A stretch of DNA of 42,333 bases from an uncultured archaeon. GTDB taxonomy: Archaea; Asgardarchaeota; Lokiarchaeia; Sigyniarchaeales; SOKP01. The notes beneath the pieces were generated by a model. The model made no database searches. It was not told the origin of the DNA and saw only the letters and a list, made by a program, of their open reading frames with translations. The position numbers and the translations under genes are program-made. Shown here piece by piece: positions 7,366-33,940 of the stretch. The DNA lies in the NCBI GenBank assembly GCA_964525635.1, contig CAZGJX010000025.1:1-42333 (forward strand), written 5' to 3'. Position 1 is the first letter of the stretch; every line of letters starts with the position of its first letter.

Positions 7366-8040
7366 TTAAATTTTTCTTTTTTTAATGGAAATTACCGAAA
7401 TACCTACAATAGAGCCCATAAGAATTAACATATCATATCCATAAATCCTTAGATTATCAATGATACTATAAGTCCATATCAATTGTGGTGCATCTTCTTC
7501 CCAGAAATATCCCTCTCTGGAATTGATATAAGCATAATCCTCAATGTAATTCTCTACATCAATATACACACATATTGAAAGGAAGGTTCTTCCCTCAATT
7601 AGTGATGTAACATCTAACTTATAAATATCATTAGAAATTACTAAAAGATTATCAATTACAGCTCCTTTGTCTGGCTTGTCTATCCATGTTACTGAATACT
7701 CATTCCAGTTTTCTTCGATTAGGCAGACAGTAAAGTTCATTGTTTGGAGAACACCCCAGAAATCTAGCGAAATTTCTGCCTTAGTGAAGTTATTAGGTCT
7801 ATTTGAAAATTCGAAATAAAAATAAGCTTCTTTAATATCGCTTAAAATATTAAATCCTGCTTGTAAAATATCTACTCCACCATAATTAGAAGTTGGATTT
7901 CCTGTATCAACATAAGTATCTTTAGTTGCGATATCTTCATTTGTAAGGGCACTTGTTAATGGAATTCTTGGGAGTATTCCGATAAGAAATATTAAAATTG
8001 CTATTATAGGTAAATATATCTTTTTTTTCATATTTATCAA
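7366..8040 (-). CDS. Surface protein: signal peptide, DNRLRE/CBM96-like domain, Loki-CTERM-like anchor
   Basis: N-terminal KKK plus hydrophobic stretch; DTYV....P.SNYG and W.E..VTW...P motifs; C-terminal IYGY-TM-KKRK. Confidence 0.75.
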   Translation of the reverse strand: MINMKKKIYLPIIAILIFLIGILPRIPLTSALTNEDIATKDTYVDTGNPTSNYGGVDILQAGFNILSDIKEAYFYFEFSNRPNNFTKAEISLDFWGVLQTMNFTVCLIEENWNEYSVTWIDKPDKGAVIDNLLVISNDIYKLDVTSLIEGRTFLSICVYIDVENYIEDYAYINSREGYFWEEDAPQLIWTYSIIDNLRIYGYDMLILMGSIVGISVISIKKRKI

Positions 8041-8195
8041 CCTTCTTTTTAATTGAAACTATACTTTAGTCTATAGCTGAAATTTAATTATTTTTGATTT
8101 TTGTATAACATTCATCATAAATTTGTCTTAAAAACATTTCGTTATTTAGGTTGTTTAATAAGACACTATGAAAGATTTTTTATTATCAATTAAAA

Positions 8196-15257: not shown

Positions 15258-18200
15258 TATGGTCCCTCCCATCCAAGAATTTTATAATTAAGACGCCTAT
15301 TGGTATCTGAGCCCGGATTAAGAAAATTATATGCCTCATCTATTAATATGGATAATCCCTGAGGTTTAATATTCTCATTTTTATCTATGGCTCCTTTTTC
15401 AATCAAATATTTCTTAAAATCTCTAATATCCCTTGTACTCATTTCAACCAAAGGTAGATAATCCACCAATGCAACGATTTTACTACGATCAATACCCTTC
15501 TCATCCAAAGTCTTATGTTGTTTTTGTTGCCGTAGAAAAGCTAAAAGTTTCTTGGGAAATCCTTTTTGAACTATTATACCCTTATACTTATCCATTATTT
15601 CACGTTCAAAATAGTGGTCAAGAATTTTTATTTTATTATATACTATTTTAATATTAAAATCACCATCATATTCTTCAATATCCCATAAATCCTTGAAAAC
15701 ATTACAAGTAACTTCCTTAACATTTTCACCTTCTAAGGTCAAAATGTATTGACTTGTTTTTATTGTCCCTCTATAAAGTTCATATGCTCTAAATAAAGTG
15801 TTACTATTTGTCAGGGAGTATAGAGTCTTCTTATCATCAATGTATTGTAGTATTTCATCAAAATCATGTTTTTTTAACTTGAGTTCTGTCTGAATAAAAT
15901 TAATTAGTCTAAATTTGTCTATTTCTTCTTGCTGCACAATATCTGTTAAATATTTAGCATCTCCGGTTTGACTTAACTTTTCTAACTCACTTAATTTAGC
16001 GCTAGCTAAGTCCTTGATTTTTTTTTCAAATGTTTCATGCTTGATTTCTTCCTCTTCCCCTAGAATATAAAACTCTTTACCGACTAAATAGGTAATATCC
16101 TTAATTTTACTGCTAAGTTTTTCTATTATTCCTATGATTGCATCTAATTCAACTCCAGGGCTAAAATTCTTAACAAATACATCTCTTTCATTTCCAATCC
16201 GGTTAACTCTTCCTACTCTCTGAACGATCTTCATAGGATTCCAAGGAAGATCATAATTAATCACTCCATCTGCATCCTGTAAGTTTACCCCTTCACTTAA
16301 AATATCCGTAGAAATTAAAATCTCAATATTACTTCTGAAATATTTTTTTGAATTATTCGCGACAGGTGCAAAACGTTCGATGATATTTTCCTTTTGATGT
16401 TGGTTTAGATCTCCAGTTAAAATCTCGATCTTCAAACCCTCTTTAGAAAAAAGATAAGTCAAAGTTTCTTTTTGTTTTTTCGCCCAATCATGTAAATTTT
16501 TATATATATAATAAGCGGTATCTCTATATTGGGTAAAAATTATAAACTTTTTCTCATTAATATCATCATAAATTAAATCTTTTAATACTTGTAATTTAGG
16601 ATCATCATAAATATATATTTTTACTTTTCCAGTATACCCAGAATATTCTCCAACTATGAGAGGCTTCCCTGATTGATCCAATACCTTAATATCATCAATG
16701 TTTGTTTTAATTTCTGTCATCAATTTCTTATCTCTAATTAATTCTTCCTTAAGAGCATTCAAACCAACTTTAAGATTTGAAATTAATAGATCCAAGTCAT
16801 CAGTCTTATCACAATATTCATAAAAATCTGATTCTTTTTTACAAGAACCTTTTATTTTTTGTGCAGACTCCAGATCATTATATGTAAGCAAGTTTATTAT
16901 CAATCTTAATCTCGGATCAATCCAACCCTCTTCTATATCTACGTCATCTTCTTCAAAATCCTTAATAGCATCTTCTTTCTTGGCAATCTTAATACAATCT
17001 GAGCTAAAGTTCTTTAGTTTATCTAAGAATTCGGAAGAGATAAGATTTTCAACTTCATTTTTAAACACTATTAATTTTTTCAAAAACAATTTATTTTTAA
17101 TCTGTAGTTTAGTTAATGTTTGCTCAAAAGCGAAAATACTGCTTTCTAACCGTTTTACAAGAAGAAATTTTAGTATACCTCCAATTGGTATCATAATTTT
17201 ACTATCTTCTGAGCTTTCATCAACTGCTTTTTCTTCGCTAAAAGCCACATATCCCGAACTATATAATTTTATGAATGTAAATTCGAGATCTTCAAATAAT
17301 TCATCTAATGATTCCACAAACTTATAATACTTTAAAAATTTCTTTTCTGTCCTATTGTATGTAATTTTATCAGGAATGGGATCTTTAAAGGTATATTCAA
17401 CTCCTCTTATATTGATCTTTCCATTCTCTCCAAAACTATCCATTATATACTTTCTTGTTCTTAGGATTATGAGCTTTCTAAAAACGTCATCTTTAATTTC
17501 CTGAGCCTTTACAGCAAGATCCTTCTCTAGAGAATCATCCTCTTTCATCTTTATCTTAATATCTCTATATTCTGTAAATAATTTTGTAAGTTGAATGTTC
17601 CTTCGCTTGAAATTAGTAAAATTATTATCAGAAAAGATTTTTATAAGATTGTAGACATCCCAGATATTATTATTAATAGGAGTAGCTGTCAAAAATATGA
17701 ATTTATTTCTAAAACTATTCTGGTTATTCTTTTCTTTAAATCTTAAAGCTCTTGCATTATTCCAACGATTGGTTGCTCTATTACGAAATTTATGTGCTTC
17801 ATCAATAAGAATTAAGTCATATTCTTTATGAAGATCTGAATTATAAATACTATCAGGACTCATCATTCCAAACTTTCCCAAAGATAAAAAATGAACTTCT
17901 CCAGCATAATTATCCCCAATTATTTGATATCTTATGATTTTTTTTTCAGATTCAAGTTTTACATTATTAGTTTTTGAAAAAAAATCTCCACTCTTAAATA
18001 ATAGATATCGCCATTGCTTAATCAAAGCAGGAGGTAGAATTAAAAGGGCTTTTCGAGGTTTATTAATTCTATAATTATTAGGATCCCATTCTAGTAAATT
18101 CCCTGTAATATATTCCTCAATTAAGGCCGCTCCAATAAAACTTTTTCCTAGACCTACGCTATCCGCAACTATACAACCATTAAATTCAGAGATGATTTCA

Positions 18201-18970
18201 ATAGCATTAAGAACACCAACTAATTGAAATTGAGCTAAAATATCTTCCTTTTCAATTGGTTCAATACGTCCTTTTAGCCAAATCCAAGATAAATATTTAA
18301 ATAGAGTTTTGGGAGGTACATATATACCAAAAGGATTTTTCTTTCTTGGGCTTAAAGCATTGGAATATTTGATGATGTCAATAAGATCATCTTTAAAATC
18401 ATCAGAATGATGCTCCCAGAGGTCATGGAACCACTTATATAAATAAATTACTTGATCTCGATCAGTAAATCGTGTATTCAATTCCTTACTTGTTCCAGTT
18501 CCAGAACGTGTAAAGTTTGATGATCCTATGATTGCGGCTCCTGGCGTAAATTCTTCTGAATCTTCTAATTGAAGGGGATCATTGACAAAAAGATAAAGTT
18601 TTGAATGTAATCTGCCCTCTGTAAAGATCTTAAAGTCAGCGAAGCCCTCTTTTATTAATTGATATAATTCAGTTAAATTTTCCATATTTTCATCACTTAG
18701 AGGTTTACTCAGATCCTCAAGTAATTTAGTTTTTATTCTTAATCTATACCCTGTAGAAATTTCTTTATAAGTTGGAAAATCTAATTCTCTTCCAATTAAT
18801 ATTTTAAAAAAGCCTTTCTTCATATCATGGGGTAATTTATCTTTGATAAGATTCCAACCACTTAAAAAGAAATATCCTACTGCGAAATCTGCTTCTTTAG
18901 ACTTAGCTATTAACTTTTCGATGGAAGTAATCACTTTCCTATCTGGACTATTATCTAAGATATATGCCAT
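15257..18970 (-). CDS. PLD-nuclease domain + SNF2-family helicase
   Basis: PLD: AVGYF, LHSKLY, IIGSSNFT. SF2: ADSVGLGKS, LIDEAH, LTATPINN, FTQYRDT, STDILSEGVNLQ, YDLPWNP...QRVGRVNR. Confidence 0.92.
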   Translation of the reverse strand: MAYILDNSPDRKVITSIEKLIAKSKEADFAVGYFFLSGWNLIKDKLPHDMKKGFFKILIGRELDFPTYKEISTGYRLRIKTKLLEDLSKPLSDENMENLTELYQLIKEGFADFKIFTEGRLHSKLYLFVNDPLQLEDSEEFTPGAAIIGSSNFTRSGTGTSKELNTRFTDRDQVIYLYKWFHDLWEHHSDDFKDDLIDIIKYSNALSPRKKNPFGIYVPPKTLFKYLSWIWLKGRIEPIEKEDILAQFQLVGVLNAIEIISEFNGCIVADSVGLGKSFIGAALIEEYITGNLLEWDPNNYRINKPRKALLILPPALIKQWRYLLFKSGDFFSKTNNVKLESEKKIIRYQIIGDNYAGEVHFLSLGKFGMMSPDSIYNSDLHKEYDLILIDEAHKFRNRATNRWNNARALRFKEKNNQNSFRNKFIFLTATPINNNIWDVYNLIKIFSDNNFTNFKRRNIQLTKLFTEYRDIKIKMKEDDSLEKDLAVKAQEIKDDVFRKLIILRTRKYIMDSFGENGKINIRGVEYTFKDPIPDKITYNRTEKKFLKYYKFVESLDELFEDLEFTFIKLYSSGYVAFSEEKAVDESSEDSKIMIPIGGILKFLLVKRLESSIFAFEQTLTKLQIKNKLFLKKLIVFKNEVENLISSEFLDKLKNFSSDCIKIAKKEDAIKDFEEDDVDIEEGWIDPRLRLIINLLTYNDLESAQKIKGSCKKESDFYEYCDKTDDLDLLISNLKVGLNALKEELIRDKKLMTEIKTNIDDIKVLDQSGKPLIVGEYSGYTGKVKIYIYDDPKLQVLKDLIYDDINEKKFIIFTQYRDTAYYIYKNLHDWAKKQKETLTYLFSKEGLKIEILTGDLNQHQKENIIERFAPVANNSKKYFRSNIEILISTDILSEGVNLQDADGVINYDLPWNPMKIVQRVGRVNRIGNERDVFVKNFSPGVELDAIIGIIEKLSSKIKDITYLVGKEFYILGEEEEIKHETFEKKIKDLASAKLSELEKLSQTGDAKYLTDIVQQEEIDKFRLINFIQTELKLKKHDFDEILQYIDDKKTLYSLTNSNTLFRAYELYRGTIKTSQYILTLEGENVKEVTCNVFKDLWDIEEYDGDFNIKIVYNKIKILDHYFEREIMDKYKGIIVQKGFPKKLLAFLRQQKQHKTLDEKGIDRSKIVALVDYLPLVEMSTRDIRDFKKYLIEKGAIDKNENIKPQGLSILIDEAYNFLNPGSDTNRRLNYKILGWEGP

Positions 18971-19148: not shown

Positions 19149-21275
19149 TTATAATAGATCAAATGCCGATTGAAATCCATTTTGGTTTTTCTTTTCTTTT
19201 TTAGATTTAAGTTGTACTTTTGACTTTTTATATACTTCAGGATTTAATTCCCAGATAAATCGGGACACCCGACAGGTTTGGAGCCCTCGATATGTTTGAA
19301 CAATAGCAGGAGAGATTAAATATAATTGATCTTTTGCTCGGGTGACAGCGACATAGAACACTCTTCTCTCTTCTTCAATCCCTTCAGGATCTCCGACCAC
19401 ACGACTAGAGGGGAACATGTCCTCAGCTAACATAGGAATAAAGACGACTCGCCATTCTAATCCTTTTGCACGATGTATAGTAGATATAACTAATGGTTTT
19501 TCTTGTTCTACATTGCTCCCTAATTGTGAAGTACGAGATCCTATATCTGATTGATTCAGACTTAATATTTCTAAAAGTTTCTGAATAGTGGAATAATTCT
19601 GAGCGTATACTGATAATTGTTTTAAATCATCTAGACGATCTTGCCAATTCTCATATGATGTCTTAATATGATCTTTTAAAACCTTAATTAAGTCTAAGAT
19701 TATATCAGAAGGATTATCTTTTGCTGTAATTCCTTTTATTTGCTGTATATATGTTTTTAAGTGTCTCTTACCTATCGATGGAATCCGAGAGCCTTTCATA
19801 ATATTAGAAAAGAAATTTGGAGTGAGCAAAAAATCAATTGGATTTTCTTTAGTAGATATAGTAGAAAAAATTTTTGTAGCTGATGTAGTTCCGATTCCTG
19901 GAATGATTTTAAAAATTCGCATCCATGCTAGCTCATCATAAGGATTTTCAATAATCCGTAAATGAGCAATTAAGTCCTTAATATGTGCCTTTTCAAAAAA
20001 GGCTACCCCCGCCCTTACCTCATAAGGAATATTTTTTTTTCCTAATTCTAATTCTATTCGCATAGTATGGAAGGTGGCTCGTACTAAAATAGCCATTTGT
20101 TCTAGCTCAAATCCATCCTCTCGAAGTCTTAAGACTTGTTTGGCAATAAATCTTGCTTGTGCTTTATGATCTTTTATATTAACTTGAAAAGGTGTAAGGC
20201 CTTCTGGACGAGTTGGCTGCATATCTTTTTTAAATTGGTTTTTATTATGTTGTATGGAATCATTGGCAAGAGTAAGGATTTCTGGAATTGACCTATAATT
20301 ATAAGTTATATTATAGACTCTACAATCATCATATTTTTTCTTGAAATTCATGATGTTTTGAAAGTTTGCCCCTCTAAACGCATATATACTTTGAGCATCA
20401 TCTCCAACTGCGATTATATTACGCTGCGGATTTTGTGATACAACTTTATATACAATATCATCTTGAAGCCAATTTGTATCTTGATATTCATCTACCAAAA
20501 TATATCGAATCCTTTTAGCAATAAGCTTAGCAACTATTCTTTCATCTAATAAAGCACTCCAATATATAAGTAAATCATCAAAATCTATTAATCCATCCTG
20601 AGCTTTTTTCTTTTCATAAATCTTAAAGATTTGTTTCATCTTCGCGATTACTTTCTCATTATTAAAATCTTCATATTTCCAAAGAATTACATCATGAATG
20701 GATTTGTTACAATTAATAGAATAAGAAAGAATGGATTTACAAATTTTTGCCTTTGGAAATCGTTCTTCAATTTCTTTTAAATTAGATTTTTCTCTTGCTA
20801 ATCTCATTAGTGAGACTGCATCAGTTTCATCCATTATAGTGTAATTAGATCTTAATCCCGCTGTTTTTGCATATTTTCGCAAGAATCTATTTGCAATAGA
20901 ATGAAAGGTCCCTGCCCAAATTCCTTTAGGTTTCTTTCCTAATAACGACTCCACACGCTCAATCATTTCTTTAGAAGCTTTATTGGTAAAGGTCACTAAC
21001 ATAATTTCACTTGGTCTTACGCCTAGTGATAAAAGTTTAGCAACTGCATAGGTTATAGTTCTGGTCTTTCCTGATCCTGCTCCTGCAATTATCAACATTG
21101 GACCCTGTATATTATTAATGATCTCAAATTGTTCTGGATTTAAATTTTCTTCAAAATTAACCTCATTATAGTCATTATCTAATTTTGAAGGTTCTAAATC
21201 CAAATCTTCAAAAAGATCATCCTCATAAAACTCAAATGTATATTCTTCCTCTACTTTTTCTTTTTTAGACGACAT
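19149..21275 (-). CDS. uvrD: UvrD/PcrA/Rep-family SF1A DNA helicase
   Basis: LNPEQ, AGAGSGKT, VTFTNKA, VDEYQD, VGDDAQSIYAFRGA, NYRS, STIHRAKGLEW, EERRVFYVAVTRAK. Confidence 0.95.
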   Translation of the reverse strand: MSSKKEKVEEEYTFEFYEDDLFEDLDLEPSKLDNDYNEVNFEENLNPEQFEIINNIQGPMLIIAGAGSGKTRTITYAVAKLLSLGVRPSEIMLVTFTNKASKEMIERVESLLGKKPKGIWAGTFHSIANRFLRKYAKTAGLRSNYTIMDETDAVSLMRLAREKSNLKEIEERFPKAKICKSILSYSINCNKSIHDVILWKYEDFNNEKVIAKMKQIFKIYEKKKAQDGLIDFDDLLIYWSALLDERIVAKLIAKRIRYILVDEYQDTNWLQDDIVYKVVSQNPQRNIIAVGDDAQSIYAFRGANFQNIMNFKKKYDDCRVYNITYNYRSIPEILTLANDSIQHNKNQFKKDMQPTRPEGLTPFQVNIKDHKAQARFIAKQVLRLREDGFELEQMAILVRATFHTMRIELELGKKNIPYEVRAGVAFFEKAHIKDLIAHLRIIENPYDELAWMRIFKIIPGIGTTSATKIFSTISTKENPIDFLLTPNFFSNIMKGSRIPSIGKRHLKTYIQQIKGITAKDNPSDIILDLIKVLKDHIKTSYENWQDRLDDLKQLSVYAQNYSTIQKLLEILSLNQSDIGSRTSQLGSNVEQEKPLVISTIHRAKGLEWRVVFIPMLAEDMFPSSRVVGDPEGIEEERRVFYVAVTRAKDQLYLISPAIVQTYRGLQTCRVSRFIWELNPEVYKKSKVQLKSKKEKKNQNGFQSAFDLL

Positions 21276-21433: not shown

Positions 21434-23347
21434 TTATGAATCGCAAATTATCTTTTCTTCTTTAATTTGCCTTCTTCTCGATGAAATAGTAAAATCTAAA
21501 ATAAATTGAATAATTTTTTTTATATTGCTTGGAATTGTATTTATCTTTAATTTATTTAGATATTTAAACGCTTTATATGGTTTATAACGCTTATTTGGAG
21601 ATATTCCAATAAGAACCTCAAAATTCGGATCAATAGTTATTAATCCGATTTTATTAGGAAAATTTCTAATATAATTTTTAATTCTTTCATTTTCTTTAAA
21701 ATTCTTCTTTTTTCGCTTAATTTTCTCAATTCTATCTTCTGAAAGTCCACCCTCTCTCAGTTCCTCAATATCTTTTGATTCCTCTTCCGTTAAAGGGTCT
21801 ACATCATGAATTAAAACAATAGGTCTATCAAAATGTGATAATATTTTTAAAAAATATATTAAATTATATTTTCCACCACATTCAATAACAGAAATATTAG
21901 ATGTATTTAAATTGTTATCCAATAAATCAGAGATACCATTAAGTATAATTTTTTCAACATCTCCTTCAATTAAGATAATTTTTTTTGCAAAAAACATTTC
22001 ATTTCTTTCTGGATTAAATCTCATTAACATATTAAATTCCTCTTTAGATTCTAGTTCAAAGATTTCACTCTGAATCCTTTTAATTTTTGTTCCAATATCA
22101 AGATTATTCTTACTTACTAAAATTAAGCTTAGATAATTCTCAATACTTATAAAGTGAGTGGAATGGGTTGTGTAAAGTACCTGATCATATGTAGAGATTG
22201 TATAAAGTATATTTAATAACTCCTTTTGAGCTTGGGGATGTAGATATAATTCTGGCTCTTCAATTAAAAATATAAATGGGCGATAAGTAGAATTATTTTG
22301 ATTTTCTTGTTTTGCTCTTAAATACCTAGAGTAAGTAAGAAATAAAGCAAAAATTAGAGATCTTTTAATTCCATCACCTTTTTCTTCTATTGAACTATTA
22401 ATTCCATCATCGATAAAAATCTCTGAATTAGAAAAAAAATCGCTAAATTTTGGAGTTAAAAATTTAATCTCAAGATTTTTAGTCAATATATTCTTATTTA
22501 AGTTTTCCTTTAATTTTAATTCTATATCTTTTATAATTTGAAATCTATTATCATTAGAATCTTCTATTTTATTTATCTTTTGCTTAATTTCATCTAAACT
22601 ATTCTGAAAGTCTTCTATGGATGTTTCTTTTTGCTTAATCTCTTCTAAAATAATTTTTTCTAATATTTTCTTATATATAGATTTACTTTTAATAGTAGTC
22701 TTCATTTCTTCAGATAAATGTTTAGTAGCTTCAATATACAAAAGTTCAGGTAATATTGAGACAACTTCTTTCCATTGAAATGGAGATTTACACCATATTT
22801 TTCTCATATCTATATTAGTCTCATTTTCTAAAAAATCGTGAATTCCTACTTTAAAACTAGTTTTAGTTAATTTTCCTTTTTCGTTATAAAAATAATTTTG
22901 ATGATTATTTTCCTCAATCCAGTTCTCTATTTCTGATTTATTTTCGTTCCAAGTGGATAGATATTCCTCTGAAAAATAGCAAAGATCTGGATATTCTTGT
23001 AAAATCTCAAAAGAAGTAGTAGTACGCTCAGTCTCTTCATTTATTGAAAAAACTTTTTTAAGTTTGATTTTATCATTGATAATATATCTTTCAAAAAAAT
23101 CTCTTTCTGAGTGATTTAATTCTTCAAATGTTATGGTGATAATAATATTTTTATTTAATTTTTCTTTAAAAAAATCTGATTTACTTAATCCAACAATACT
23201 TTTACTAAAAAACAATCTTAAAGCAAGCAATAAATTGGTTTTTCCTGAATTATTTTCTCCAATTAATTGTAAGAAATTATTTTTAATTTCAATTTTCTCT
23301 TTCTTAATGGAGCGAAAATTTTCAACTTTATATTTTTTTATTATCAT
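21434..23347 (-). CDS. OLD-family ATP-dependent nuclease (ABC ATPase + TOPRIM; GajA-like)
   Basis: NFRSI, GENNSGKTN, GDGIKR, IEEPELYLHP, YTTHS; TOPRIM FFA..IILIEGDVE and IHDVD. Confidence 0.92.
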   Translation of the reverse strand: MIIKKYKVENFRSIKKEKIEIKNNFLQLIGENNSGKTNLLLALRLFFSKSIVGLSKSDFFKEKLNKNIIITITFEELNHSERDFFERYIINDKIKLKKVFSINEETERTTTSFEILQEYPDLCYFSEEYLSTWNENKSEIENWIEENNHQNYFYNEKGKLTKTSFKVGIHDFLENETNIDMRKIWCKSPFQWKEVVSILPELLYIEATKHLSEEMKTTIKSKSIYKKILEKIILEEIKQKETSIEDFQNSLDEIKQKINKIEDSNDNRFQIIKDIELKLKENLNKNILTKNLEIKFLTPKFSDFFSNSEIFIDDGINSSIEEKGDGIKRSLIFALFLTYSRYLRAKQENQNNSTYRPFIFLIEEPELYLHPQAQKELLNILYTISTYDQVLYTTHSTHFISIENYLSLILVSKNNLDIGTKIKRIQSEIFELESKEEFNMLMRFNPERNEMFFAKKIILIEGDVEKIILNGISDLLDNNLNTSNISVIECGGKYNLIYFLKILSHFDRPIVLIHDVDPLTEEESKDIEELREGGLSEDRIEKIKRKKKNFKENERIKNYIRNFPNKIGLITIDPNFEVLIGISPNKRYKPYKAFKYLNKLKINTIPSNIKKIIQFILDFTISSRRRQIKEEKIICDS

Positions 23348-23378: not shown

Positions 23379-25457
23379 TTAACTTTCTTTGGTGATTTTT
23401 GTGATATGATTTGTCTTTCTGAAATTAAATATATCTGTTACAAAAGAATCTAAAGCTCTATCATGAGAAATTACAATTATTTGCTCAGTATTTAAAGAAT
23501 CAAATAAATATTGCATTTTATTGATTTGCTGTTCACTAAATCCGTCCGTCGGCTCATCCAGTATTAAAATATCTTTGGTTTTAACCTCTTGATATCGTTC
23601 ATTAATGATTCGATTAAGAGCTAAACGATAAGCTAAAGCAAGAGCACTTTTTTCTCCTCCAGACATATCTCCAAATGGTGATTCATAACCATCTACATAA
23701 ATAATTGGCTCAAAATCATCTGGTCTGATCTCAACCTCAATGTTATTCTCCTCTACCAATAGATAGAACCATTTTTTAAAATAATCATTAAATTGAACTG
23801 CACTTGAGGATACTATTTCTCGTTCAATATCTCCAAGCAATACTGGAAAATTTTCGTTAATCCATCCTTTTAAACTCGATAACTTATCCATTTTCTCCTG
23901 CAACAATTTTTTATATTCTAAATGTTTTTTCAATACTTCTAATTCATTTTTGATATATTCAAGAGATTTTTTTTCTACACTTACCTTTGCATTAAGATCA
24001 CTTTCTTCCTTCTGTAGACCTTCTAATGCCTTTCTTAATTCTTTAATTTTTTCTTTTTTATCTATGGTTAATTTACTAAAACTTTCTAAATCTTTAATTT
24101 TATATTTCTCTAAGACCTTTTTAATCTCTTTTTGATAATTTTCTATGTTTTGCTCAAAATTCGCAATTTCATCAAGTAACCCTTTTTCCATTTTTTTTGC
24201 TAGTTCAATCAATTTCTCATAAGATTCTCGGCTTGCTCTCGTTTCAGAATATTGTTTTGAGAGTTTCAAATTATTTTCTAATAAATCAATCTCTTTGTTA
24301 AATTCTTCAATTTGATTTGATAAAGAATCTATTGATTCCTGAGTTTCTTTTAATTCTTTATTGAAACGCTCTTGCTCATGGATTGTCTGTCCACATAGAG
24401 AGCATCTTCCTTCTCTTAATAATTTATTAATATCTGAGATCGATTTTTCAAGAATAGCTCTTTGTTTTTCTTTTTCAATTCTTTTATTTTTAATATCGTC
24501 TATTTTTTTAGAGAGCTCATCTTGAGATTCTGTAAAATTTAATTTTATCTCAGGTATTTTATTTAATTCTTCTTTGAATTTTATTATGCTATTTTGATTA
24601 GTTGAGACTTTATTTTCATTTTTTTCTTTATTATCTTTTTCTTGCTGAAGGAGGCTTTCTTTTTTGTCAATTTCTCTTATTTTTTGTTCTAATTCCTCGG
24701 ATTCTCCTTCTAAATTATTAATACTTTTTTTCTGCTCAGTTACTTCTTTGGACTTTTTTTCCAATTGTGTGTTAAATTTAGAAAGTTTTTTTTCTTGAAC
24801 TTTATATTCCATTTCCTTATTTTGTATTTCAGATTCAATATTGCTATAGTCTTTTAATTTACTATCCACTTCTTTGAATTTCTCTCTTAGGTATGATCCT
24901 ATAGTTTCAATATTAGCTTTAGCGATTTCATATTTCTCTATTCCAAATATGTATTTCAAGATTTCGAATCGATCCTCTGGTTTTGCTTCTAAGATTTCTT
25001 TTATATTCTCTTGGGGAGTATATACAGTATATCGAAATATAGGGATTTTTTGAGCGCGTTCGTATCTAGCTACGGAATAATTTAAAATTTCTAGAATTTT
25101 TCTTTTTAAATCTGTGGTTGCATAAGTAGTCATCTCTCCGTTTATAGTGAGAATTCCACTTTTCTGTGAAATACTCCCTTTTTTGGACTTTGATAACATT
25201 CTTTTTATTATATATTCGTTTCCATCAATACTAAATTCTAATTCAACGGTAGCTTTGTTTTCTCCCCTTCTCAGGATAGAATCTGCTTTAAGATCAGCAG
25301 CAGTTAGAGCTCCAAATAGTGCAAATTCAATGGCTTTCAGGACAGAAGATTTTCCGCTTCCGATATCCCCATAAAAAAGAATAATAGAGGGAGGTAAATC
25401 AATTTCTTCTTTTTTAATACTTCGAATATTTTCAATTTTAATTCTTTTTAATTGCAT
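23379..25457 (-). CDS. rad50: Rad50/SbcC ATPase (short coiled coil)
   Basis: GDIGSGKSS, Q-loop YTPQ, coiled coil with central zinc hook CSLC, MSGGE, ILDEPT, ISHD. Confidence 0.93.
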   Translation of the reverse strand: MQLKRIKIENIRSIKKEEIDLPPSIILFYGDIGSGKSSVLKAIEFALFGALTAADLKADSILRRGENKATVELEFSIDGNEYIIKRMLSKSKKGSISQKSGILTINGEMTTYATTDLKRKILEILNYSVARYERAQKIPIFRYTVYTPQENIKEILEAKPEDRFEILKYIFGIEKYEIAKANIETIGSYLREKFKEVDSKLKDYSNIESEIQNKEMEYKVQEKKLSKFNTQLEKKSKEVTEQKKSINNLEGESEELEQKIREIDKKESLLQQEKDNKEKNENKVSTNQNSIIKFKEELNKIPEIKLNFTESQDELSKKIDDIKNKRIEKEKQRAILEKSISDINKLLREGRCSLCGQTIHEQERFNKELKETQESIDSLSNQIEEFNKEIDLLENNLKLSKQYSETRASRESYEKLIELAKKMEKGLLDEIANFEQNIENYQKEIKKVLEKYKIKDLESFSKLTIDKKEKIKELRKALEGLQKEESDLNAKVSVEKKSLEYIKNELEVLKKHLEYKKLLQEKMDKLSSLKGWINENFPVLLGDIEREIVSSSAVQFNDYFKKWFYLLVEENNIEVEIRPDDFEPIIYVDGYESPFGDMSGGEKSALALAYRLALNRIINERYQEVKTKDILILDEPTDGFSEQQINKMQYLFDSLNTEQIIVISHDRALDSFVTDIFNFRKTNHITKITKES

Positions 25458-25459
25458 GA

Positions 25460-26737
25460 TTAATCCTCCAAATCTTCTAATTCAAATACATTATTAAACG
25501 ATTCTATTAAATGAGCTTTATAATCTTTAACATTACTACCTTCTTCTCTTTCCTTTCCTATAATATCTATTAACCTATGAATATTATCTTCAAGCTGTTT
25601 TTTTGAATATCCAATTAATTCCGTTATTTGAGAGTGTTCATGAATCAATGTTTTTTCAATCTCTTCGTTAGTTTTTCCTAAAGCAACTCTAATAGACGAA
25701 TATCCTTTTGTAAAGACTCCACATTTATTAATTAGTATCTCGTAAGCATTTTTTTCTTTAAATTTATTTTCTATTTCAGCGGAATTAATTTCATACGCTT
25801 TTCCTGAGGAGAGAGTTCCAGCTATTCTTAAGGTAGCAATTTTATCTTCTAGTTCATTCTTATCTATTAGATTTGTTAACTCATTTAATATCTCCAGTAC
25901 AGATTTGTTATTACAATTTATCTTTAAATTAATAACATCTTTAACTCTAACTGGAATAAATCTAACTTCTAGATGATTATTTATATCTCCTTGAACCATG
26001 CAAAATCCCCCATGGTTAAACTTTTCTAATTCTCGAAAGTCTGTAGGAAAGAGGCATCCTGGATAAACAATATTATTTTTATCATTAATAATAATACGTC
26101 CATTTTCTCGTAAAGATTCTGGTACTGTTTTATGGAGATGTCCACCAGCATAGTAATTAAAATGCTTTGGTAGATACGATTTAGGAGCAGATTCCATTTC
26201 AGCATACTCTGAGGGTTTTAATTCTTGGAGCATTGTGTGAAATACAAATATTTTAGCTCCTTCTTCTTGTTCTAATGGTTCATATGCTAATCTTTGGAAA
26301 TCTTCAACTTCAAGAGCTCTTTTTCTTGCTCTCATTCCAGTTAATTTGATCTTTGATTTTGGATCTTCGGTAAATTCTAAATAAATTTTGTTATCTTCTC
26401 CTATAGATCCTTTATATAAATCTGTATAGAATCCCGCACTAATTAATGGGCGAATCATAGTCTTCTCAGACGGAGAAAAATCGTGAGATCCCATAATAGC
26501 ATATACGGGAATATTATTATCGCTCAATTCTCTTAATTTCTTAATTGCTAAATCAACAACATCTACTTTTGGATTTGATGTATCGTATAAATCTCCACTA
26601 ATGATCACAAAATCCACTTTTTCTTCAATGCAAATGTCTATCGCTTTTTCAAAGGCTTCATACCCACATATATTAAGATTCTCCCTTCTCCAAGCACCCA
26701 AATGTACATCCGACATATGAGCAAATTTTACATTCAT
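25460..26737 (-). CDS. mre11: Mre11/SbcD nuclease
   Basis: Metallophosphoesterase motifs HMSDVHLG, SGDLYD, GSHD, FH, GGHLH and YPG; lies 2 bp from rad50. Confidence 0.93.
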   Translation of the reverse strand: MNVKFAHMSDVHLGAWRRENLNICGYEAFEKAIDICIEEKVDFVIISGDLYDTSNPKVDVVDLAIKKLRELSDNNIPVYAIMGSHDFSPSEKTMIRPLISAGFYTDLYKGSIGEDNKIYLEFTEDPKSKIKLTGMRARKRALEVEDFQRLAYEPLEQEEGAKIFVFHTMLQELKPSEYAEMESAPKSYLPKHFNYYAGGHLHKTVPESLRENGRIIINDKNNIVYPGCLFPTDFRELEKFNHGGFCMVQGDINNHLEVRFIPVRVKDVINLKINCNNKSVLEILNELTNLIDKNELEDKIATLRIAGTLSSGKAYEINSAEIENKFKEKNAYEILINKCGVFTKGYSSIRVALGKTNEEIEKTLIHEHSQITELIGYSKKQLEDNIHRLIDIIGKEREEGSNVKDYKAHLIESFNNVFELEDLED

Positions 26738-26766
26738 TTTTTAAATACCTCTTTTTTATTAATATT

Positions 26767-28323
26767 TTATTCAAGACCAGGTGATCTTTTTCTTGTAGAT
26801 GGTTGAGATTTGTCCTTTTCTGCAAGATATTTGACAAGATCACTAAATAAGGGAATTTTAATAGGAATTGCAAACTTGGTAAAATTGGAAGTTATAATTG
26901 CTTCTCCTTTATCTAAGCTTGCAATAGTTTGTGAATCATCTGAAAGATCTTGAGCAGCACTGTCAATTAAAGCTCTTCTTTCAGGACCCATTTCATTCCC
27001 TAGAATTATCTTAGTATTCATGTTAGCCAAAATATCTCTGGGAATTTCACTTGGTAATTGAGTAATTGCTATTAATCCAATTTGGAACTTTCTTCCTTCT
27101 CTTGCTATTGTTCCAAAGATATTATTGCGAGCCTCTAACACTCGTTTTCCAATAACTCTTGGAGCTTCTTCTAAGACAATAGAAATGACAGGTTTATTTT
27201 TTAACTCGTCTTTAAATTTATAATTTTTATATTTTGAAAAAATTCTTTCGGTAATAAGAGTCGCTACAAATATTTCTTCATTTCCAGTAAACAATGACGT
27301 GTCAATTATTACGGTTTTTCCTTCTTCTAAAGAATTTATTATATTATTTATTGTACTCTCATGTCCATTAAATTGGTAGATACCATTCGCATTAACCTTA
27401 TCATCTTCATGCTCTAAATCGAGTAAGATAGATAATTTTCTCTTTAAAACTCCTACAGTGTTTTCTGTAACTCCTGGTGTGGATGGACCAATAAATATAT
27501 TTTTTATCCAATTTTTATATTCATTTACTTTATCTTGCCGATGGTATAGAATTAGCGCGTCCTTTTGGGCATTTGAAAGAGATAGTGTATCTATAAAATT
27601 ATACGGAGAGAGTAACTTCATATTGAATTTTAAATCCAATTTGCCATGGACTTCTCTTATAGTGTAGTATTCAAGATATTCCTCTTTTTTAGGATGTTTT
27701 TTAAGACTTTCATAATATTCATTATGAGGATCAAAGACTAATTTACCACATTTTTCATTTTCTATAATATTATAGAGAATCACTTTGACTAAATTTGATT
27801 TTCCTCTTCCTGTAGTAGCAGGAATCAAAACATGATGTTTAAATACTTCTAAAGCTTCTAAGTTAATTTCAGTCTTTAATTCTTTAGATCCTGAGCGGAC
27901 AGTTCCCAACATAATCGGATTATCAATTTGATCTTCTTTTAGAAATGATAAATGATCATCTTCTAATTCATATACATCACTGAAAAATTCCGGTAGTTTT
28001 TTTGGTAAAAATAGTTGATCATTTTTCAAATGAATGAGCGGTCTTGCAAGAGCAAGTACGTAATTTCTTAACTCTGGTTCGTAAATAGCAAGATTACTCG
28101 ATTCTCGTTCTAATTTATACCCTGCCATTAATTCTAATATATTATCGGGCATTTGGCTTCCAAACATTAAATCATTAATTTGGAAAATAATATAGTCTTT
28201 AGGATTCTTTCCAGCAACAATTAATTGCCCAATTTCAAATGATTCCTCTGATTTCTGACGTAGGTATAATTTTACAAATGAACCTGTTATAAAACTGCCT
28301 ATTTTTTTTCCTAATTTTGACAT
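26767..28323 (-). CDS. herA: HerA DNA translocase/helicase
   Basis: N-terminal barrel-like region, [50 protein letters not shown]. Confidence 0.93.
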
Positions 28324-28344
28324 TTTCTTATCACTTAATAGAAT

Positions 28345-29478
28345 TTAATTTTTTCTTATAGAATTTAAAATATTATGAGCCTCGATAGAGTATATCCGAG
28401 GCAAGAGATTATTAACATAAATAGTCTGATCAATTTCAGAGATAATCTCAATCTTCCATGGTTCTATTTCTCTTTTTGAGACTCTTGATAATTGATCTAC
28501 TTTGATTAATCCATAAGGATATCCTGGAAATGTGATATCATTTGAATTTAACGCTAAATTTGAGATGATAACCTCTTTTTCTTCAGTATCTATCTCTTTT
28601 GATTGTTTTAAATAAATATCAAACCTGAAAGGCATTAAAGCATGTTCATGTAATTTTACAAAATACACATCTGCCATACCATCTGCTCTTGTGATTTGAT
28701 AAATAGGATGATAATACCACTTTTTATTTTTATATTTATTTGAAGCTATTGAATGAATTAATGATATTAATGAATCACCATTTTTGGTAAGCAGGCGACA
28801 GGACTTCGAAAGCCCAGTAACATATACATGTTTTTTTTCAGCTTGTTTCTCTAATTTTCGAACTAATTTAATTTCATCTTTAAATCCTGTTTGAAGAGAG
28901 CCATCCCTTACAAAAATATCACCTTGATCTAAGGTTGCCTCTATAAATTGAGTAGCATAAGTCCATTCAGAAAAACGCATTCCAACACCTCCAAAATTCT
29001 CAATTCTTGGCATAAATCTAATTCCATATATAGAACGCGCCTCATCAAGAGTTATCGTTATTTTTTCTTTAGGTAAGTAATTCCAAAACTCATCTTCTCT
29101 TGGGAATAATTGAATTGAATATATAAGTCTATCATCCTCAGTTGGTTCCAATACAGTAACAGAATAAAATTCAATAACTTGAGGGACTGTAGAAAATTCG
29201 CTTATTTTATTATTTTTACATAAGACTCCCGCTATTCGCGTGAGATTTATATTAAAATCCGCACTTGATAAGATTGAGATTGAACCTCCATCAACGAATC
29301 CTAAATTTCTAAATTTTGCCTTATCTGGAATTTGAAATATTCTCTCTTTAGAAATATCATAAATTATCTCTCCATCTCCTTCTGAATAAGGTTTATCTGT
29401 TTTGGCAAATCCTTTTTTTGCGTTAATAACATAATCAATGCACTTTCTCAATGCTTTAATTGAGGTATTTTCTCTCAA
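28345..29478 (-). CDS. nurA: NurA 5'-3' nuclease
   Basis: GFVDGG, FVRDGSL, GLSK and GYPYGL..VD motifs; TTG start with AAGGGA RBS; 21 bp upstream of herA. Confidence 0.88.
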   Translation of the reverse strand: MRENTSIKALRKCIDYVINAKKGFAKTDKPYSEGDGEIIYDISKERIFQIPDKAKFRNLGFVDGGSISILSSADFNINLTRIAGVLCKNNKISEFSTVPQVIEFYSVTVLEPTEDDRLIYSIQLFPREDEFWNYLPKEKITITLDEARSIYGIRFMPRIENFGGVGMRFSEWTYATQFIEATLDQGDIFVRDGSLQTGFKDEIKLVRKLEKQAEKKHVYVTGLSKSCRLLTKNGDSLISLIHSIASNKYKNKKWYYHPIYQITRADGMADVYFVKLHEHALMPFRFDIYLKQSKEIDTEEKEVIISNLALNSNDITFPGYPYGLIKVDQLSRVSKREIEPWKIEIISEIDQTIYVNNLLPRIYSIEAHNILNSIRKN

Positions 29479-29566
29479 TATAATCCCTTTTTTACTGTCT
29501 TTATATCCTTATTATTAAATTTTTTATTTTTAAAGCTTTATATTTTCTAAGTATTTTTTTTGAATT

Positions 29567-31831
29567 TTATCTGGGAATGTAAGGAACATTAATATCCTCT
29601 TTATTTAAAATTGCTAAATTCTGAACAATATGCAAAGGCAAAATCGTTTTTGGTTGATTAAAAAGTGAATTCCAATCTAAATATCTTAGATCATTAAATA
29701 ATTGTGAAATTTCAATAATATTCATATTATTGATCCCTTGATGAGTTAAAACTAATCGCTGAGATGTTGCTGTCCCTCTATATGGTCTTGAAGTAATTAA
29801 TAGTGCTTCTTTGTCATTTCTAATTAAACCCAAAGGTTTTATTTTATAATCTCTCTGCTCTGAACCATAAATTCTATGAACACCACGTTTTATTACTGCA
29901 ATAACTTTTATATCAGAGTTTTCATTCATAATCCCTTCTTTTATCAATCTTTCCCTTGCATTCAAAGCTCCTTTTTTATACTCTTCTACTTGATTGCTAT
30001 AGATTGGACCATCCTTAAATAACATTAAATAATCAATGAGTTTTTTATTTGTATTCAAATAGGTTGACATAGCTACATCAACAAACCAATCATTTAGTAC
30101 AGTAGATTCTACACGTTCCCCTCTATGTGATTCAATAGAATTTTTATAAAGAACTTGCCCTAAGCTATCACATATAGCGGCATAAGCAGCGGCTTCCGCT
30201 CTTGTTTCAGGATTTCTTGAGACATCAAAACCCATAAAATAGACGGTCTTGTCTTGACTGAGATTTCCAGCAGGTTTATTTAAGTGCCATATTGATTGAT
30301 TTACCCTCAAATATCTTCCATAATTCTTTAGTGCTATTATATATCCTTCTGCTTTCACTTCAGAAGAATTCAATATTTTTTTTAAAGTACTTTCTCTAAT
30401 CATTTGACTTTTTATCGCATTTTTTCCTAATGCTCTCTTAGAAGCCCTATAGATTCTAGTTGTATTTTTATTTGGAATAATAACGTTTACAATTCCATTG
30501 CTTAAATTATTGCCACATTCTAAGCAGGTTCTCATATATCTATCAGGAGTAAGCTCTTTTATAGCAATTATATTTTTTATCTCAAAATTTCCTAGATTTA
30601 GTCTTTTAGCATGATGATTTAGATTATTATTATATTTCCTAACTTCAGATTGCAAGTAAGAAGGTATAATATAAATTATAGGAATAGTAGCAACTTTTGA
30701 AATGGGACCAAAATTTTCCAATGAAGATTTAATAGGAAGAGATTGCCAAGAGGAGTCAACTTTACACACATTATCACCCCCAAATCTTAACTCAGGTGGA
30801 TTAAATTGAATAATTGAATTGTATGGAATATCTTTATTATTTTTCCAACTATGTAAATCCCTGATAAATCTTATTTTTATTTGTCCTAAATCAAGGCCAC
30901 TACTAAGTAACATATCATATATTTTCAGAGTCTCTTCAATTCGATTTTTAGGATTTAAGATCTTCTTTTCATTGAAGACTTTATTTGGGAGAAGATGTTC
31001 GGATGGATCTATTACTATTTCTAATACATTATAAGGATAACATAGGGGTTCTGGACTGAAATCTGTTTTTACCAATATAACTGGCATATCATTTGGATAT
31101 AATTTAATTTTATTTCTAGCACACCAATTTTTATTTTGCTTTTCTTGAGTCCAATAGTTATAAATAGAGAATACGTCTGAACCTTTCTTAAATTTATACG
31201 TATCTATCGTCTGATATACAATTTCCTTTATTCTTCCATTAAAAGTACCTTCCTTTGAAACTTTAGGACATTTAACTCTCTTTCCTATTAAGAAGTGTTC
31301 GGGATCATCAATATTGTTCTTTTTTGCCCATTTAAAAAAATACTTTAAGGGAAATTTCCATCTCGTTGAAGGATCTAACCATACTCCAATTTTCCCATTC
31401 GAATAGACCTCAATTTCAGAAAAAAATGCCTCATAATAATCAAGAATGTCTGACTTATAAGGATCTCTCCTAACATACTTTTGACTTTCAGGACCCATAT
31501 ATCCCATTCGGAATGCTTGTCTCTTCAAAGCTTGAGAAATTATTTTAGCTAATATTTTTTGATGGTCAAGAGAATTTAATTCAATTTTTGTGTTTGATTT
31601 TTTAAAATCATAACCTCCATAATGATAACTATCTTCAAGATTATCTTTCCCCATATAAATTACCTTATTACCCATCGTTATAGGAAAGACTCCTCTATTA
31701 AACAGAAACCATTCAAATCCTTTTGTAATTTTATAGAAATTTTCAGGTAGAATGGATTGATCTATCAAATAACAGGGGAGAGCCACTTTTTGTAAAGGGT
31801 TATCCAATGAGACAAATAAATTCGAATACAA
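29567..31831 (-). CDS. ago: Long prokaryotic Argonaute (N-L1-PAZ-L2-MID-PIWI)
   Basis: PAZ: SIYNYW...DMPVILVK...YP. MID: Y...K...KSQMI. PIWI: MGFDVS, LFKDG, VIKRG, GTA, L.YLDW, P.T.LPLH. TTG start with AGGTGA RBS. Confidence 0.92.
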   Translation of the reverse strand: MYSNLFVSLDNPLQKVALPCYLIDQSILPENFYKITKGFEWFLFNRGVFPITMGNKVIYMGKDNLEDSYHYGGYDFKKSNTKIELNSLDHQKILAKIISQALKRQAFRMGYMGPESQKYVRRDPYKSDILDYYEAFFSEIEVYSNGKIGVWLDPSTRWKFPLKYFFKWAKKNNIDDPEHFLIGKRVKCPKVSKEGTFNGRIKEIVYQTIDTYKFKKGSDVFSIYNYWTQEKQNKNWCARNKIKLYPNDMPVILVKTDFSPEPLCYPYNVLEIVIDPSEHLLPNKVFNEKKILNPKNRIEETLKIYDMLLSSGLDLGQIKIRFIRDLHSWKNNKDIPYNSIIQFNPPELRFGGDNVCKVDSSWQSLPIKSSLENFGPISKVATIPIIYIIPSYLQSEVRKYNNNLNHHAKRLNLGNFEIKNIIAIKELTPDRYMRTCLECGNNLSNGIVNVIIPNKNTTRIYRASKRALGKNAIKSQMIRESTLKKILNSSEVKAEGYIIALKNYGRYLRVNQSIWHLNKPAGNLSQDKTVYFMGFDVSRNPETRAEAAAYAAICDSLGQVLYKNSIESHRGERVESTVLNDWFVDVAMSTYLNTNKKLIDYLMLFKDGPIYSNQVEEYKKGALNARERLIKEGIMNENSDIKVIAVIKRGVHRIYGSEQRDYKIKPLGLIRNDKEALLITSRPYRGTATSQRLVLTHQGINNMNIIEISQLFNDLRYLDWNSLFNQPKTILPLHIVQNLAILNKEDINVPYIPR

Positions 31832-31840: not shown

Positions 31841-31880
31841 TCACCTTGTGTATAATGTAGCATGAATCATATTTAAATAT
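31841..31880 (-). promoter_or_regulatory. ago RBS (AGGTGA, 31841-31846) and candidate TATA box in palindrome ATATTTAAATAT (31869-31880)
   Basis: The RBS is 9 nt before the TTG. TTTAAATA lies a little over 20 nt upstream of the RBS, within the 152-bp divergent intergenic region. Confidence 0.5.
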
Positions 31881-31983: not shown

Positions 31984-33108
31984 ATGTCACAAAAAAAGGA
32001 AGATTCATATTCAAAAATTAAATCATTGGTAGAAGAATCTATAGAAAAAGGAATAATTGAAAAAGATAATCTTTTAGATCCTACTTTATTTTGGTATCAT
32101 ACGTTTCATTATATATCTGATCCTTTAAATACAATCAATAATGAGACAAAATTCTCAAAAGATAACTTAGAATTTTTTATAAATCGCGAAGCAGAGATGA
32201 AAATTATTTCCAAATATATTGGAAATCTGCACAATTTATCTTCAATGACACATATCGCCTTAATAGGAGCATTGGGATGTGGTAAACACACAACTTTTAA
32301 AGCTATTTGTAAGATTGTAAATGATTCGTTTCCTGATATAAAATATGAGTTTTATAACTACTATGGATTTGATTTTAAAAATAATATTGATTTAGAAGAT
32401 GATATTTTAAAAAAAGTAGATGATTCTGATTTAGATATGAGAATTATTTCTTGTTCGGCATTGACTAAAGACTTTCTTAAAAAGAGATTTAAAAAATACA
32501 ATAAAAATACAAAGATATTGTTTTCGATTTGGAATATAGGTGAATATTCTATTCGATCTGAAATATTAGTCAATAAAGAAATCTTTTTTAGAAATTATTC
32601 CAAAAAAGAAATTATTAAAATATTGAGGAAAAGGATTGAAATGTATTTGATTAAAGATATAACTTTAGAGAAATATAAAAACAATATAATAGAGCAGGTC
32701 CTACCTCTATTATCAGAAATATCAGAGGGAAATTTACGGATTTCCTTTATTTTATTTAGGATTATCCATCAAGAAGCAAGAATTAAAGGCATTCAATTAT
32801 TTAATATGGACTTCCCCCAGACAATATTAGAGGAATTTAAAAATATGAAAAGTGTTAAATTAACTGATAAAGAAAATACTATTATTAAGTATATGCTATT
32901 TAATGGAATTAAGTATATAACTACCTCTAAGATGGTACAAGAACTAAATTATGAGAGAACTGTAGCTTGGAAATATTTAGAAAATCTTACAAATAAGAAT
33001 GTATTATATAAGCAATATGGAAATCCTTCAAAATATGAGATAACAGAATTATTTTTAAGTATATATGAAGAAAAAATAAAGAAAAAATTAATTTTTAAAG
33101 AACATTAA
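31984..33108 (+). CDS. AAA+-like (Cdc6/Orc1 or archaeal ATPase-like) protein with C-terminal winged HTH, probably a degenerate ATPase
   Basis: FINREAE, P-loop GALGCGKHTT, SEGNLR lid motif, C-terminal LTDKE..I....RTVAWKYLENL; no clear Walker B. Confidence 0.7.
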   Translation: MSQKKEDSYSKIKSLVEESIEKGIIEKDNLLDPTLFWYHTFHYISDPLNTINNETKFSKDNLEFFINREAEMKIISKYIGNLHNLSSMTHIALIGALGCGKHTTFKAICKIVNDSFPDIKYEFYNYYGFDFKNNIDLEDDILKKVDDSDLDMRIISCSALTKDFLKKRFKKYNKNTKILFSIWNIGEYSIRSEILVNKEIFFRNYSKKEIIKILRKRIEMYLIKDITLEKYKNNIIEQVLPLLSEISEGNLRISFILFRIIHQEARIKGIQLFNMDFPQTILEEFKNMKSVKLTDKENTIIKYMLFNGIKYITTSKMVQELNYERTVAWKYLENLTNKNVLYKQYGNPSKYEITELFLSIYEEKIKKKLIFKEH

Positions 33109-33121: not shown

Positions 33122-33940
33122 ATGCCTACCTTAAGGATATATTTAAATTTTTTATTTAAAAATGATTTAGAAGAAATTGAGACAAATATTCTTAAGAATG
33201 AAGATAATTTTGCAAAATTTGATGATAATGATATGATTTTAAAATCAGGTTTTTTTGAAGATCAAAAAATCTTTACAAAAATAGAGGACACTGATTATTA
33301 TATAGCAAATTATTTATTACAGCAATCAAAGTCCATTCCTTCTAAGAACTCTGAACTTATTTACTTTAAATTACAAGAATCAAAAGTGGATTCTAAGGAA
33401 GAGAGGATTTTCTTCCCTATACTAATCAAGATCATTTTTAATATAAATAAAAAAGTTTTATGCCTATATAGTAGGAAAGTTGTGGAAAATGATGCGGCCA
33501 ATAGTTTTATAAAACAATTAGAAGAAAAATATGGATTTTCTTTTAAATTTTTTCTAACTCATTTTGCTTTTAAAAAAAATAAGCTAGATAAATTTCTAGA
33601 AGCTCTGGGTAAACTTAGTAATTTCACTTCTATTTGCATTTTTGATAAAGATAATAATATAATCGCGCAAAATTCAGATACCTTATCTGAGACTAGGAAA
33701 ATTCATGAGTTTTTAGATGAAGTCAATATTGGGAATTGGAAATATGTAGAATTAATCCATAATGATCTTGAATTTAGAATAAGAATAAGTAATAAAAAGA
33801 CTCAAAATTATATTACCTTAAAAAATAGATATGATAATGATTATAAACTAGTCAAAATAACTGATTATCTAATAGAAAAAATTAAAGAAACAATTGATTT
33901 CGAAAAACAGCAGCAAGCTAAGTTGGATTGGTTTAAATAA
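33122..33940 (+). CDS. Hypothetical protein with a C-terminal PIP-box-like motif
   Basis: 272-aa ORF 13 bp after the AAA-wHTH gene; ends QQQAKLDWFK. Confidence 0.65.
   Translation: MPTLRIYLNFLFKNDLEEIETNILKNEDNFAKFDDNDMILKSGFFEDQKIFTKIEDTDYYIANYLLQQSKSIPSKNSELIYFKLQESKVDSKEERIFFPILIKIIFNINKKVLCLYSRKVVENDAANSFIKQLEEKYGFSFKFFLTHFAFKKNKLDKFLEALGKLSNFTSICIFDKDNNIIAQNSDTLSETRKIHEFLDEVNIGNWKYVELIHNDLEFRIRISNKKTQNYITLKNRYDNDYKLVKITDYLIEKIKETIDFEKQQQAKLDWFK

Follow-up and report, generated by a model that had tools for sequence, protein, structure and literature searches.

A recurrent association of a long prokaryotic Argonaute with exchangeable NurA-HerA-Mre11-Rad50 cassettes in Lokiarchaeia

A contig of 42,333 bp from an uncultured archaeon of the Lokiarchaeia (CAZGJX010000025.1 of assembly GCA_964525635.1), in the following "the window," contains a gene for a long prokaryotic Argonaute (pAgo) that is followed on the same strand by nurA, herA, mre11, and rad50. 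This combination of an Argonaute (Ago) with the NurA-HerA-Mre11-Rad50 end-processing proteins is a real, recurrent, and undescribed association, and by its predicted function it is a variant of nuclease-assisted pAgo defense. A preliminary description of the locus had regarded the arrangement as not characterized before, and no published account of an Argonaute with NurA, HerA, Mre11, or SbcCD was found in the literature searched, subscription journals not being covered. The pairing suggests how archaeal Argonautes may obtain small DNA guides.

Recurrent pairing of Argonaute and cassette

The row was recovered as described initially: five open reading frames on the minus strand, separated by 88, 21, 29, and 2 bp. 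It consists of ago (29567..31831, 754 amino acids [aa], Pfam Piwi with 7e-10), nurA (28345..29478, a 377-aa nuclease of cassette type A, Pfam NurA over the cut-off with the acidic motifs kept), herA (26767..28323, a 518-aa translocase of type A, assigned by Pfam DUF87 with 6e-24, by the tree, and by NCBIfam HerA models as best matches, these below the equivalog cut-off), mre11 (25460..26737, 425 aa, Pfam Metallophos over the cut-off), and rad50 (23379..25457, a short Rad50 of 692 aa, Pfam AAA_23/SbcC over the cut-off). All four partners of Ago had been said to keep recognizable active-site motifs, and this was borne out by the Pfam matches together with FVDG61 and RDGS191 in NurA; TGRGKS171, EEAP385, and REGRK408 in HerA; DVHLG, GDLYD, GSHD, and GHLH in Mre11; and Walker A, the CSLC zinc hook, MSGGE, LDEPT, and SHD in Rad50. 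The catalytic motifs of the partners are conserved across 14 to 15 aligned copies. In the GSHD of Mre11 motif III, S replaces the usual N, as it does in 13 of 14 aligned copies.

The ago-nurA junction is no assembly artifact because contigs from two other runs span it with 0 to 1 differences, X3 at positions 28566-29823 and X4 at 29442-30035; both are further salt marsh runs, possibly of one campaign. A joint that skips Ago was not seen in four runs, although contigs cannot show absence. The genome of the window (G000) comprises 4.45 Mb with a GC content of 27% and is 100% complete. The GC content at third codon positions of the unit genes, 0.16 to 0.22, is inside the range of this genome, and inspection of the window revealed no tRNA gene, no att-like repeat, and no CRISPR array.

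Synteny had been proposed as a measure of whether the row represents a system, and Ago upstream of nurA-herA indeed recurs across genera. The Ago of the window belongs to a Loki-type subclade of six members (the window, L035, L050, L051, L058, and L059) with a support of 100/99. nurA comes first after ago in four loci (the window, L035, L051, and L058) and second in L050; herA is located downstream in all five of these paired loci, and mre11-rad50 follows wherever the contig reaches, in L051 as a fusion. In the sixth member, L059, the genes after ago encode a NYN nuclease and a protein of the PD-(D/E)XK type that matches HerA weakly. The background is given by the other Asgard Ago loci, where nurA(-herA) neighbors were present in 4 of 49. 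Five of six versus 4 of 49 yields a Fisher p of 2e-4, which is overstated because related loci do not count as independent cases and the contigs are often short. As observations on single loci, a protein of 1388 aa that matched nothing in Pfam or NCBIfam is encoded between ago and nurA at L050:12574-16740, and natural Mre11-Rad50 fusions of about 1190 to 1200 aa occur in type B cassettes (L051:14202-17807; also L089 and L132-L135).

The trees of Ago and HerA, which were to be compared according to the preliminary description, disagree, and the pattern is that of repeated re-pairing of an Ago lineage with unrelated cassettes. The partner HerAs of the subclade are distributed over three deeply different clades and their monophyly was rejected (approximately unbiased test, p-AU 4e-59); therefore, the Ago-cassette pairing arose repeatedly. 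HerA identity between the cassette types is about 25 to 28%, and the Agos of the subclade are 45 to 49% identical to that of the window. In the next relative, L044, the Ago gene faces a cassette of yet another, fourth type, and in L107 an Ago with 29% identity is again located upstream of nurA-herA. Cassettes are also preceded by two further Ago lineages of the family, a long one (L133 and L149) and a short one (L122). At L122:14793-17708, the short pAgo and a 473-aa partner are positioned directly before a nurA-herA-mre11-rad50 cassette of type C, and the regulator ahead of them is the one also present in the window (see below).

More distant members of the Ago clade were found beside mre11-rad50 (L040 and L049), beside UvrD-PD(D/E)XK genes (L045, L046/L056, and L063), beside RmuC/exonuclease genes (L052), or with a Cas4-like gene directly downstream (L038 and L066). 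The L052 record, from Heimdallarchaeota, also encodes, divergently from its clade Ago, a second, degenerate Ago-like protein of 730 aa (6742-8934, E 9e-13).

Cassette, Argonaute, and the proposed guide source

Besides the cassette, G000 possesses a second, separate set of the four repair genes, a point that the preliminary description had left to be checked. The set is scattered and consists of nurA (C71), two other herA genes (C89 and C74), a partial mre11 (C114), and a 909-aa Rad50 that adjoins rpoE (G000:C7:898-3627, L201). For a conceivable join between C114, which ends in the mre11 piece, and the beginning of C7, no overlap and only weak matches were found. No CxxC was found in this core Rad50 by pattern search, so that its zinc hook may be absent. 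A first tblastn search had pointed to the operon as the sole housekeeping copy in G000, which was rejected when Pfam and hidden Markov model searches revealed the divergent second set. Three congeners carry a Rad50 of the 909-aa type, and this Ago and this cassette were not found there. The type A cassette is present in 46 of the 135 family genomes. Given the second set, the absence from the congeners, and this distribution, the cassette is not a sole, vertically inherited housekeeping copy. In the three of 11 tested carriers that have both a long Rad50 and the cassette (G000, G011, and G021), the cassette is located behind the divergent regulator.

At the uvrD/alba locus of one genus, a herA-nurA-mre11-rad50 cassette of type D (L087 and L094-L097) alternates with nurA-herA-mre11-rad50 of type A (L088, L106, and L021). 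Both types are unrelated, and many genomes with either of them are without the long core Rad50; the alternation is a xenologous replacement of a repair operon. The patchy spread, this alternation, and the mostly Ago-free carriers indicate a mobile module for end processing in general, able to replace a core set or to join defense loci, and not an Ago-specific paralogue.

The Ago itself shows the N-L1-PAZ-L2-MID-PIWI architecture of a long pAgo. Its AlphaFold2 model (predicted local distance difference test, 83.5) aligns over about 800 columns with full-length Agos at template modeling scores of 0.57 to 0.70 and 12 to 15% identity. In the MID pocket, Y461, K465, and Q476 are present, with R506 near the usual last Lys, where the clade consensus is K; the C-terminal residue is R754. 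The PIWI tetrad reads D536-E572-D607-Q737. Q737, which the preliminary description had missed, aligns in the profile with the catalytic Asp that closes the tetrad in KmAgo and in the 9iad Ago, an assignment based on sequence since the model is of low confidence past residue 721. D, E, D, and Q are invariant in the 14 of 14 clade rows tabulated, and a sister branch has His at the fourth position. D, H, N, and K are the fourth residues known so far (PMC11291487), and slicing long-A pAgos are recognized by DEDX with X being one of these four, which Q737 is not. Judged from the alignment, the Ago of this rare archaeal clade thus carries an unreported D-E-D-Q tetrad, and such a site was not found in the literature searched. 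The clade was recovered by exhaustive HMMER and alignment-based scans, word-indexed searches having returned the query alone; it occurs in 4 of the 135 family genomes, with one copy truncated, and also in Heimdall-, Bathy-, and Micrarchaeota records. As to a possible place in the long-A clade, the best matches of a broader profile among solved structures were VbAgo (E 1e-48), KmAgo (E 2e-39), and the 9iad Ago, all active long pAgos, but the tree contained no reference long-A or long-B sequences. A second, very divergent Piwi protein of 745 aa, followed by a 632-aa protein, is encoded elsewhere in G000 (C46:4019-8154, L033), with near-relatives in G193 and G243.

NurA is an RNase H-fold enzyme that leaves 5'-phosphates. 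CbAgo is loaded with guides from breaks processed by RecBCD (10.1101/2020.03.01.971358), and the guide source of pAgos in cells without RecBCD or AddAB is an open question (PMC12094033). With rather more belief than doubt, the locus can be read as a regulated module against invaders that combines a long pAgo with a mobile, co-encoded spare end-processing cassette, and this cassette serves as a guide source similar to RecBCD/AddAB. Mre11-Rad50 would open the free ends of viruses, plasmids, or broken replicons, and HerA-NurA would degrade them. The HerA-NurA of Thermococcus degrades both strands and was proposed to be antiviral (PMC12977600). A part of the short, 5'-phosphorylated, single-stranded products would enter the MID pocket of Ago as guides. 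The guided Ago would then bind complementary DNA or RNA and, if the D-E-D-Q site is active, cut it also, and such cuts would be new ends feeding the same machine in a feed-forward destruction. Bacterial OLD senses uncleared DNA ends (PMC13648713), and the OLD protein encoded behind rad50 might be a fail-safe for ends that were not cleared. The coupling between Ago and cassette is probably brought about by a shared substrate and co-regulation and not by a fixed complex, which is less likely because the partner cassettes are interchangeable. The further-reaching statement, that the locus is an archaeal immune system not described before, its D-E-D-Q Ago depending on co-encoded NurA-HerA(-Mre11-Rad50) for guides and for target destruction with OLD as a guard, is a serious but tentative proposal, held with somewhat less than even confidence.

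Several findings weigh against the guide-source reading. Relatives that carry the cassette as their only copy and no ago had been named beforehand as evidence of this kind, and many relatives are like this: Ago is located 5' of the type A cassette in 2 of the 46 carriers (G000 and G202), leaving 44 without it, and of 11 carriers tested, 8 yielded no long core Rad50, so that the cassette probably serves routine repair there; G000, with its second set, is not such a case. The slot between regulator and nurA is variable and may be occupied by a NERD-helicase gene (L019 and L022) or the short-pAgo pair (L122). At the clade loci L053, L060/L061, and L081, no end-processing neighbor was present. nurA may own a separate promoter inside the 88-bp ago-nurA gap, to judge by a TATA-like stretch there. 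Slicing by Ago is uncertain because Q lies outside the known set of D, H, N, and K, and no data on HerA-NurA products of guide length were found. "Hard-wired," the term of the preliminary description for the link of end processing to Ago, is too strong because the cassette lacks Ago in the great majority of the family genomes carrying it. The link appears to be one-way, with an Ago that needs the cassette and a cassette that does not need Ago.

The same findings are compatible with co-location without mechanistic coupling, in which a mobile repair or defense cassette is accompanied by Ago as one of several cargo genes for the first slot of a regulated defense operon. The variable first slot, where a 730-aa protein of no known kind was also found, the mostly Ago-free cassettes, the possible internal promoter, and the setting in a defense island with OLD, PLD-SNF2, methylase, and SIR2 proteins are all as expected for this possibility. 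It does not account as easily for one Ago lineage heading three unrelated types of cassette with gene order and orientation unchanged, for a pairing rate far above that of other Asgard Agos, which are likewise defense genes, or for distant members with an HFX_2341-like regulator that still adjoin end-processing enzymes. Co-location alone is accordingly considered a possible but doubtful explanation.

Alternatively, Ago may act as an effector that does not slice: a D-E-D-Q Ago with a guide from elsewhere would recruit or license NurA-HerA/Mre11-Rad50 against marked DNA, like non-slicing pAgos that use partner nucleases. The Q in place of the fourth catalytic residue, the short pAgo of L122, a member of a class without the tetrad that also heads a cassette, and the degradation of both strands by HerA-NurA (PMC12977600) agree with such a role, which is nevertheless unlikely: D, E, and D are invariant across the clade and a sister branch carries H at the fourth position, both of which point to a functional metal site; the partners differ too much from one another for one conserved interface; and HerA-NurA acts from DNA ends.

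Genome maintenance instead of immunity is the least probable of these functions and would be rather surprising. Guides derived from breaks would allow Ago to aid homologous recombination or the completion of replication. In some genera, the cassette is positioned beside alba and uvrD, in several genomes its Rad50 is the sole one found, and a part of pAgos in replication and repair has been suggested (PMC12094033); an Ago clade that reaches so few family genomes, an Ago in a defense island, and a separate repair set kept by G000 do not fit.

If such an Ago-dependent immune system exists as proposed, it would answer how pAgos get their guides without RecBCD or AddAB, and HerA-NurA would be shown to act in immunity. 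One construct of five or six genes makes testable the source of DNA guides for an archaeal pAgo in such cells (PMC12094033) and HerA-NurA as a defense nuclease besides or instead of a resection enzyme (PMC12977600). The locus also offers an Argonaute whose predicted D-E-D-Q site is unreported in the literature searched, and the textbook housekeeping resection operon is represented in Lokiarchaeia by at least four exchangeable, mobile types.

Flanking genes and control signals

The unit extends beyond the five genes of the preliminary description, which stood, into two parts that had been overlooked, the OLD gene after rad50 and a divergent regulator pair upstream. The OLD-family ATPase-TOPRIM nuclease is encoded 31 bp past rad50 (21434..23347, minus strand; Pfam AAA_15 and OLD-like TOPRIM, PADLOC Old with 5e-72) and is a probable sixth member. 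A 60%-identical OLD is located past rad50 in the Ago-linked locus L124/L149, and more distant OLDs are present in L133 and L035. Next on the minus strand is a cassette-associated UvrD/PcrA-like helicase (19149..21275; Pfam), with 64 to 70% identity to UvrDs that adjoin type A or type D cassettes in relatives, followed by two defense island neighbors, one a PLD-SNF2 helicase and the other a type IIG-like methylase (11985..18970, minus strand; Pfam and PADLOC). A similar PLD-SNF2 and methylase pair is located near Ago in L044, L053, and L061.

On the plus strand, a 374-aa P-loop protein with a C-terminal helix-turn-helix (HTH; 31984..33108) has weak Orc1/Cdc6 and Csa3-HTH matches and is the putative regulator of the unit. 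Its gene points away from Ago in every Loki-type clade locus. It is present in 12 of 161 class genomes, in six of them facing Ago and in the other six a cassette operon. The co-encoded 272-aa protein (33122..33940, plus strand) follows the regulator in 10 other loci with 32 to 51% identity, and family searches including NCBIfam gave no family for it. Outside the Loki-type subclade, the divergent position is taken by an HFX_2341/Csa3-like CARF-HTH regulator (L037, L038, L040, L046, L048, L049, L056, L133, and L149). A truncated ago remnant of 149 aa (L079:10264-10713) was found behind the same regulator pair as in the window, with the cassette absent downstream.

Upstream of ago, all on the minus strand, a TATA-like box (31868..31877) is conserved across 10 aligned intergenic regions. 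Just past it, an ATG-N3-CAT palindrome (31855..31863) is a candidate operator; it occurs in seven of seven Ago-clade intergenic regions, with ATA-N3-CAT in the remaining three of the ten. ago starts with TTG, preceded by a GGTGA ribosome-binding motif (31841..31845). Between ago and nurA, the sequence is rich in A and its sense strand is free of a T run, as claimed before; missing from that account was the TATA-like stretch at 29499..29519 (minus strand), a possible internal nurA promoter by its likeness, judged by eye, to the region 5' of an Ago-less nurA in L016. A sigma-70 promoter scan returned counts at chance level, the model being unsuited to archaea.

Two SIR2-like proteins flank the island (5111-7000, plus strand, and 35177-36787, minus strand), one of them fused to TPR repeats, and a 502-aa TIR-LRR-Ras/Roc small GTPase fusion is encoded at 8196-9704 (minus strand).

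Comparison with known systems

An archaeal herA-mre11-rad50-nurA operon is known from Sulfolobus, Pyrococcus, and Thermococcus. The window shares with it four adjacent genes with catalytic motifs but differs by a patchy, mobile cassette with a short Rad50 (692 aa), GSHD in Mre11, and scores below the NCBIfam equivalog cut-offs, and by an Ago at its head, an OLD after it, and a second set in the genome. SIR2-HerA/HerA-DUF4297 and Gabija/OLD systems likewise have a HerA motor, or an OLD and UvrD pair, in a defense setting. However, the window's herA is located between nurA and mre11 with no SIR2 or DUF4297 beside it, and its best scores are with repair HerA models. With respect to Gabija (GajA-GajB), the OLD and UvrD genes are adjacent with a 158-bp gap and gave PADLOC matches to GajA and GajB; Old outscores GajA, and close UvrD relatives follow cassettes without OLD.

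HrAgo1, the eAgo-like Asgard Argonaute (PMC11217426), is similar as a long Argonaute from a Loki-type host, but it belongs to a different branch of the tree and its neighbors are RNase III and a helicase instead of NurA/HerA; by size and context, L156 looks like HrAgo1. In the midpoint-rooted tree, long paths separate the window's Ago from the eAgo-like Asgard Agos, which are on the opposite side, although long branches limit certainty. The relevance to the origin of eukaryotic links between Argonaute and repair that had been suggested is thus unsupported, since this Ago is far from the eAgo-like ones, its best solved relatives are bacterial, and its clade is also present in Bathyarchaeota and Micrarchaeota. 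KmAgo, one of the top profile matches among the solved structures, is DNA guided and RNA cleaving. VbAgo, another of these matches, has the same preference (PMC13219720 and PMC10448046), and both are distant from the window's Ago.

Already known are Agos with co-encoded nucleases, as in APACE1, and Agos fed by repair enzymes. In APACE1 (PMC12094033), a long-A pAgo is likewise co-encoded with a repair-related nuclease, the Cas4-family ACE1, which processes guides, and the clade members L038 and L066 with their Cas4-like genes come close to this arrangement. In the window, no Cas4-family match was present among the ten neighbors scanned by Pfam, and the gene after ago is nurA; the predicted partner is a machine of four proteins that is driven by ATP, has other folds, and is interchangeable. 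CbAgo and TtAgo resemble the window's Ago as full-length pAgos with a Y-K-Q MID pocket, for which guides from break-processing helicase-nucleases were proposed (10.1101/2020.03.01.971358). The window's Ago differs by its predicted D-E-D-Q tetrad and the low identity to solved Agos given above, and the machine is here the archaeal NurA-HerA-Mre11-Rad50, present as a spare copy and encoded beside Ago.

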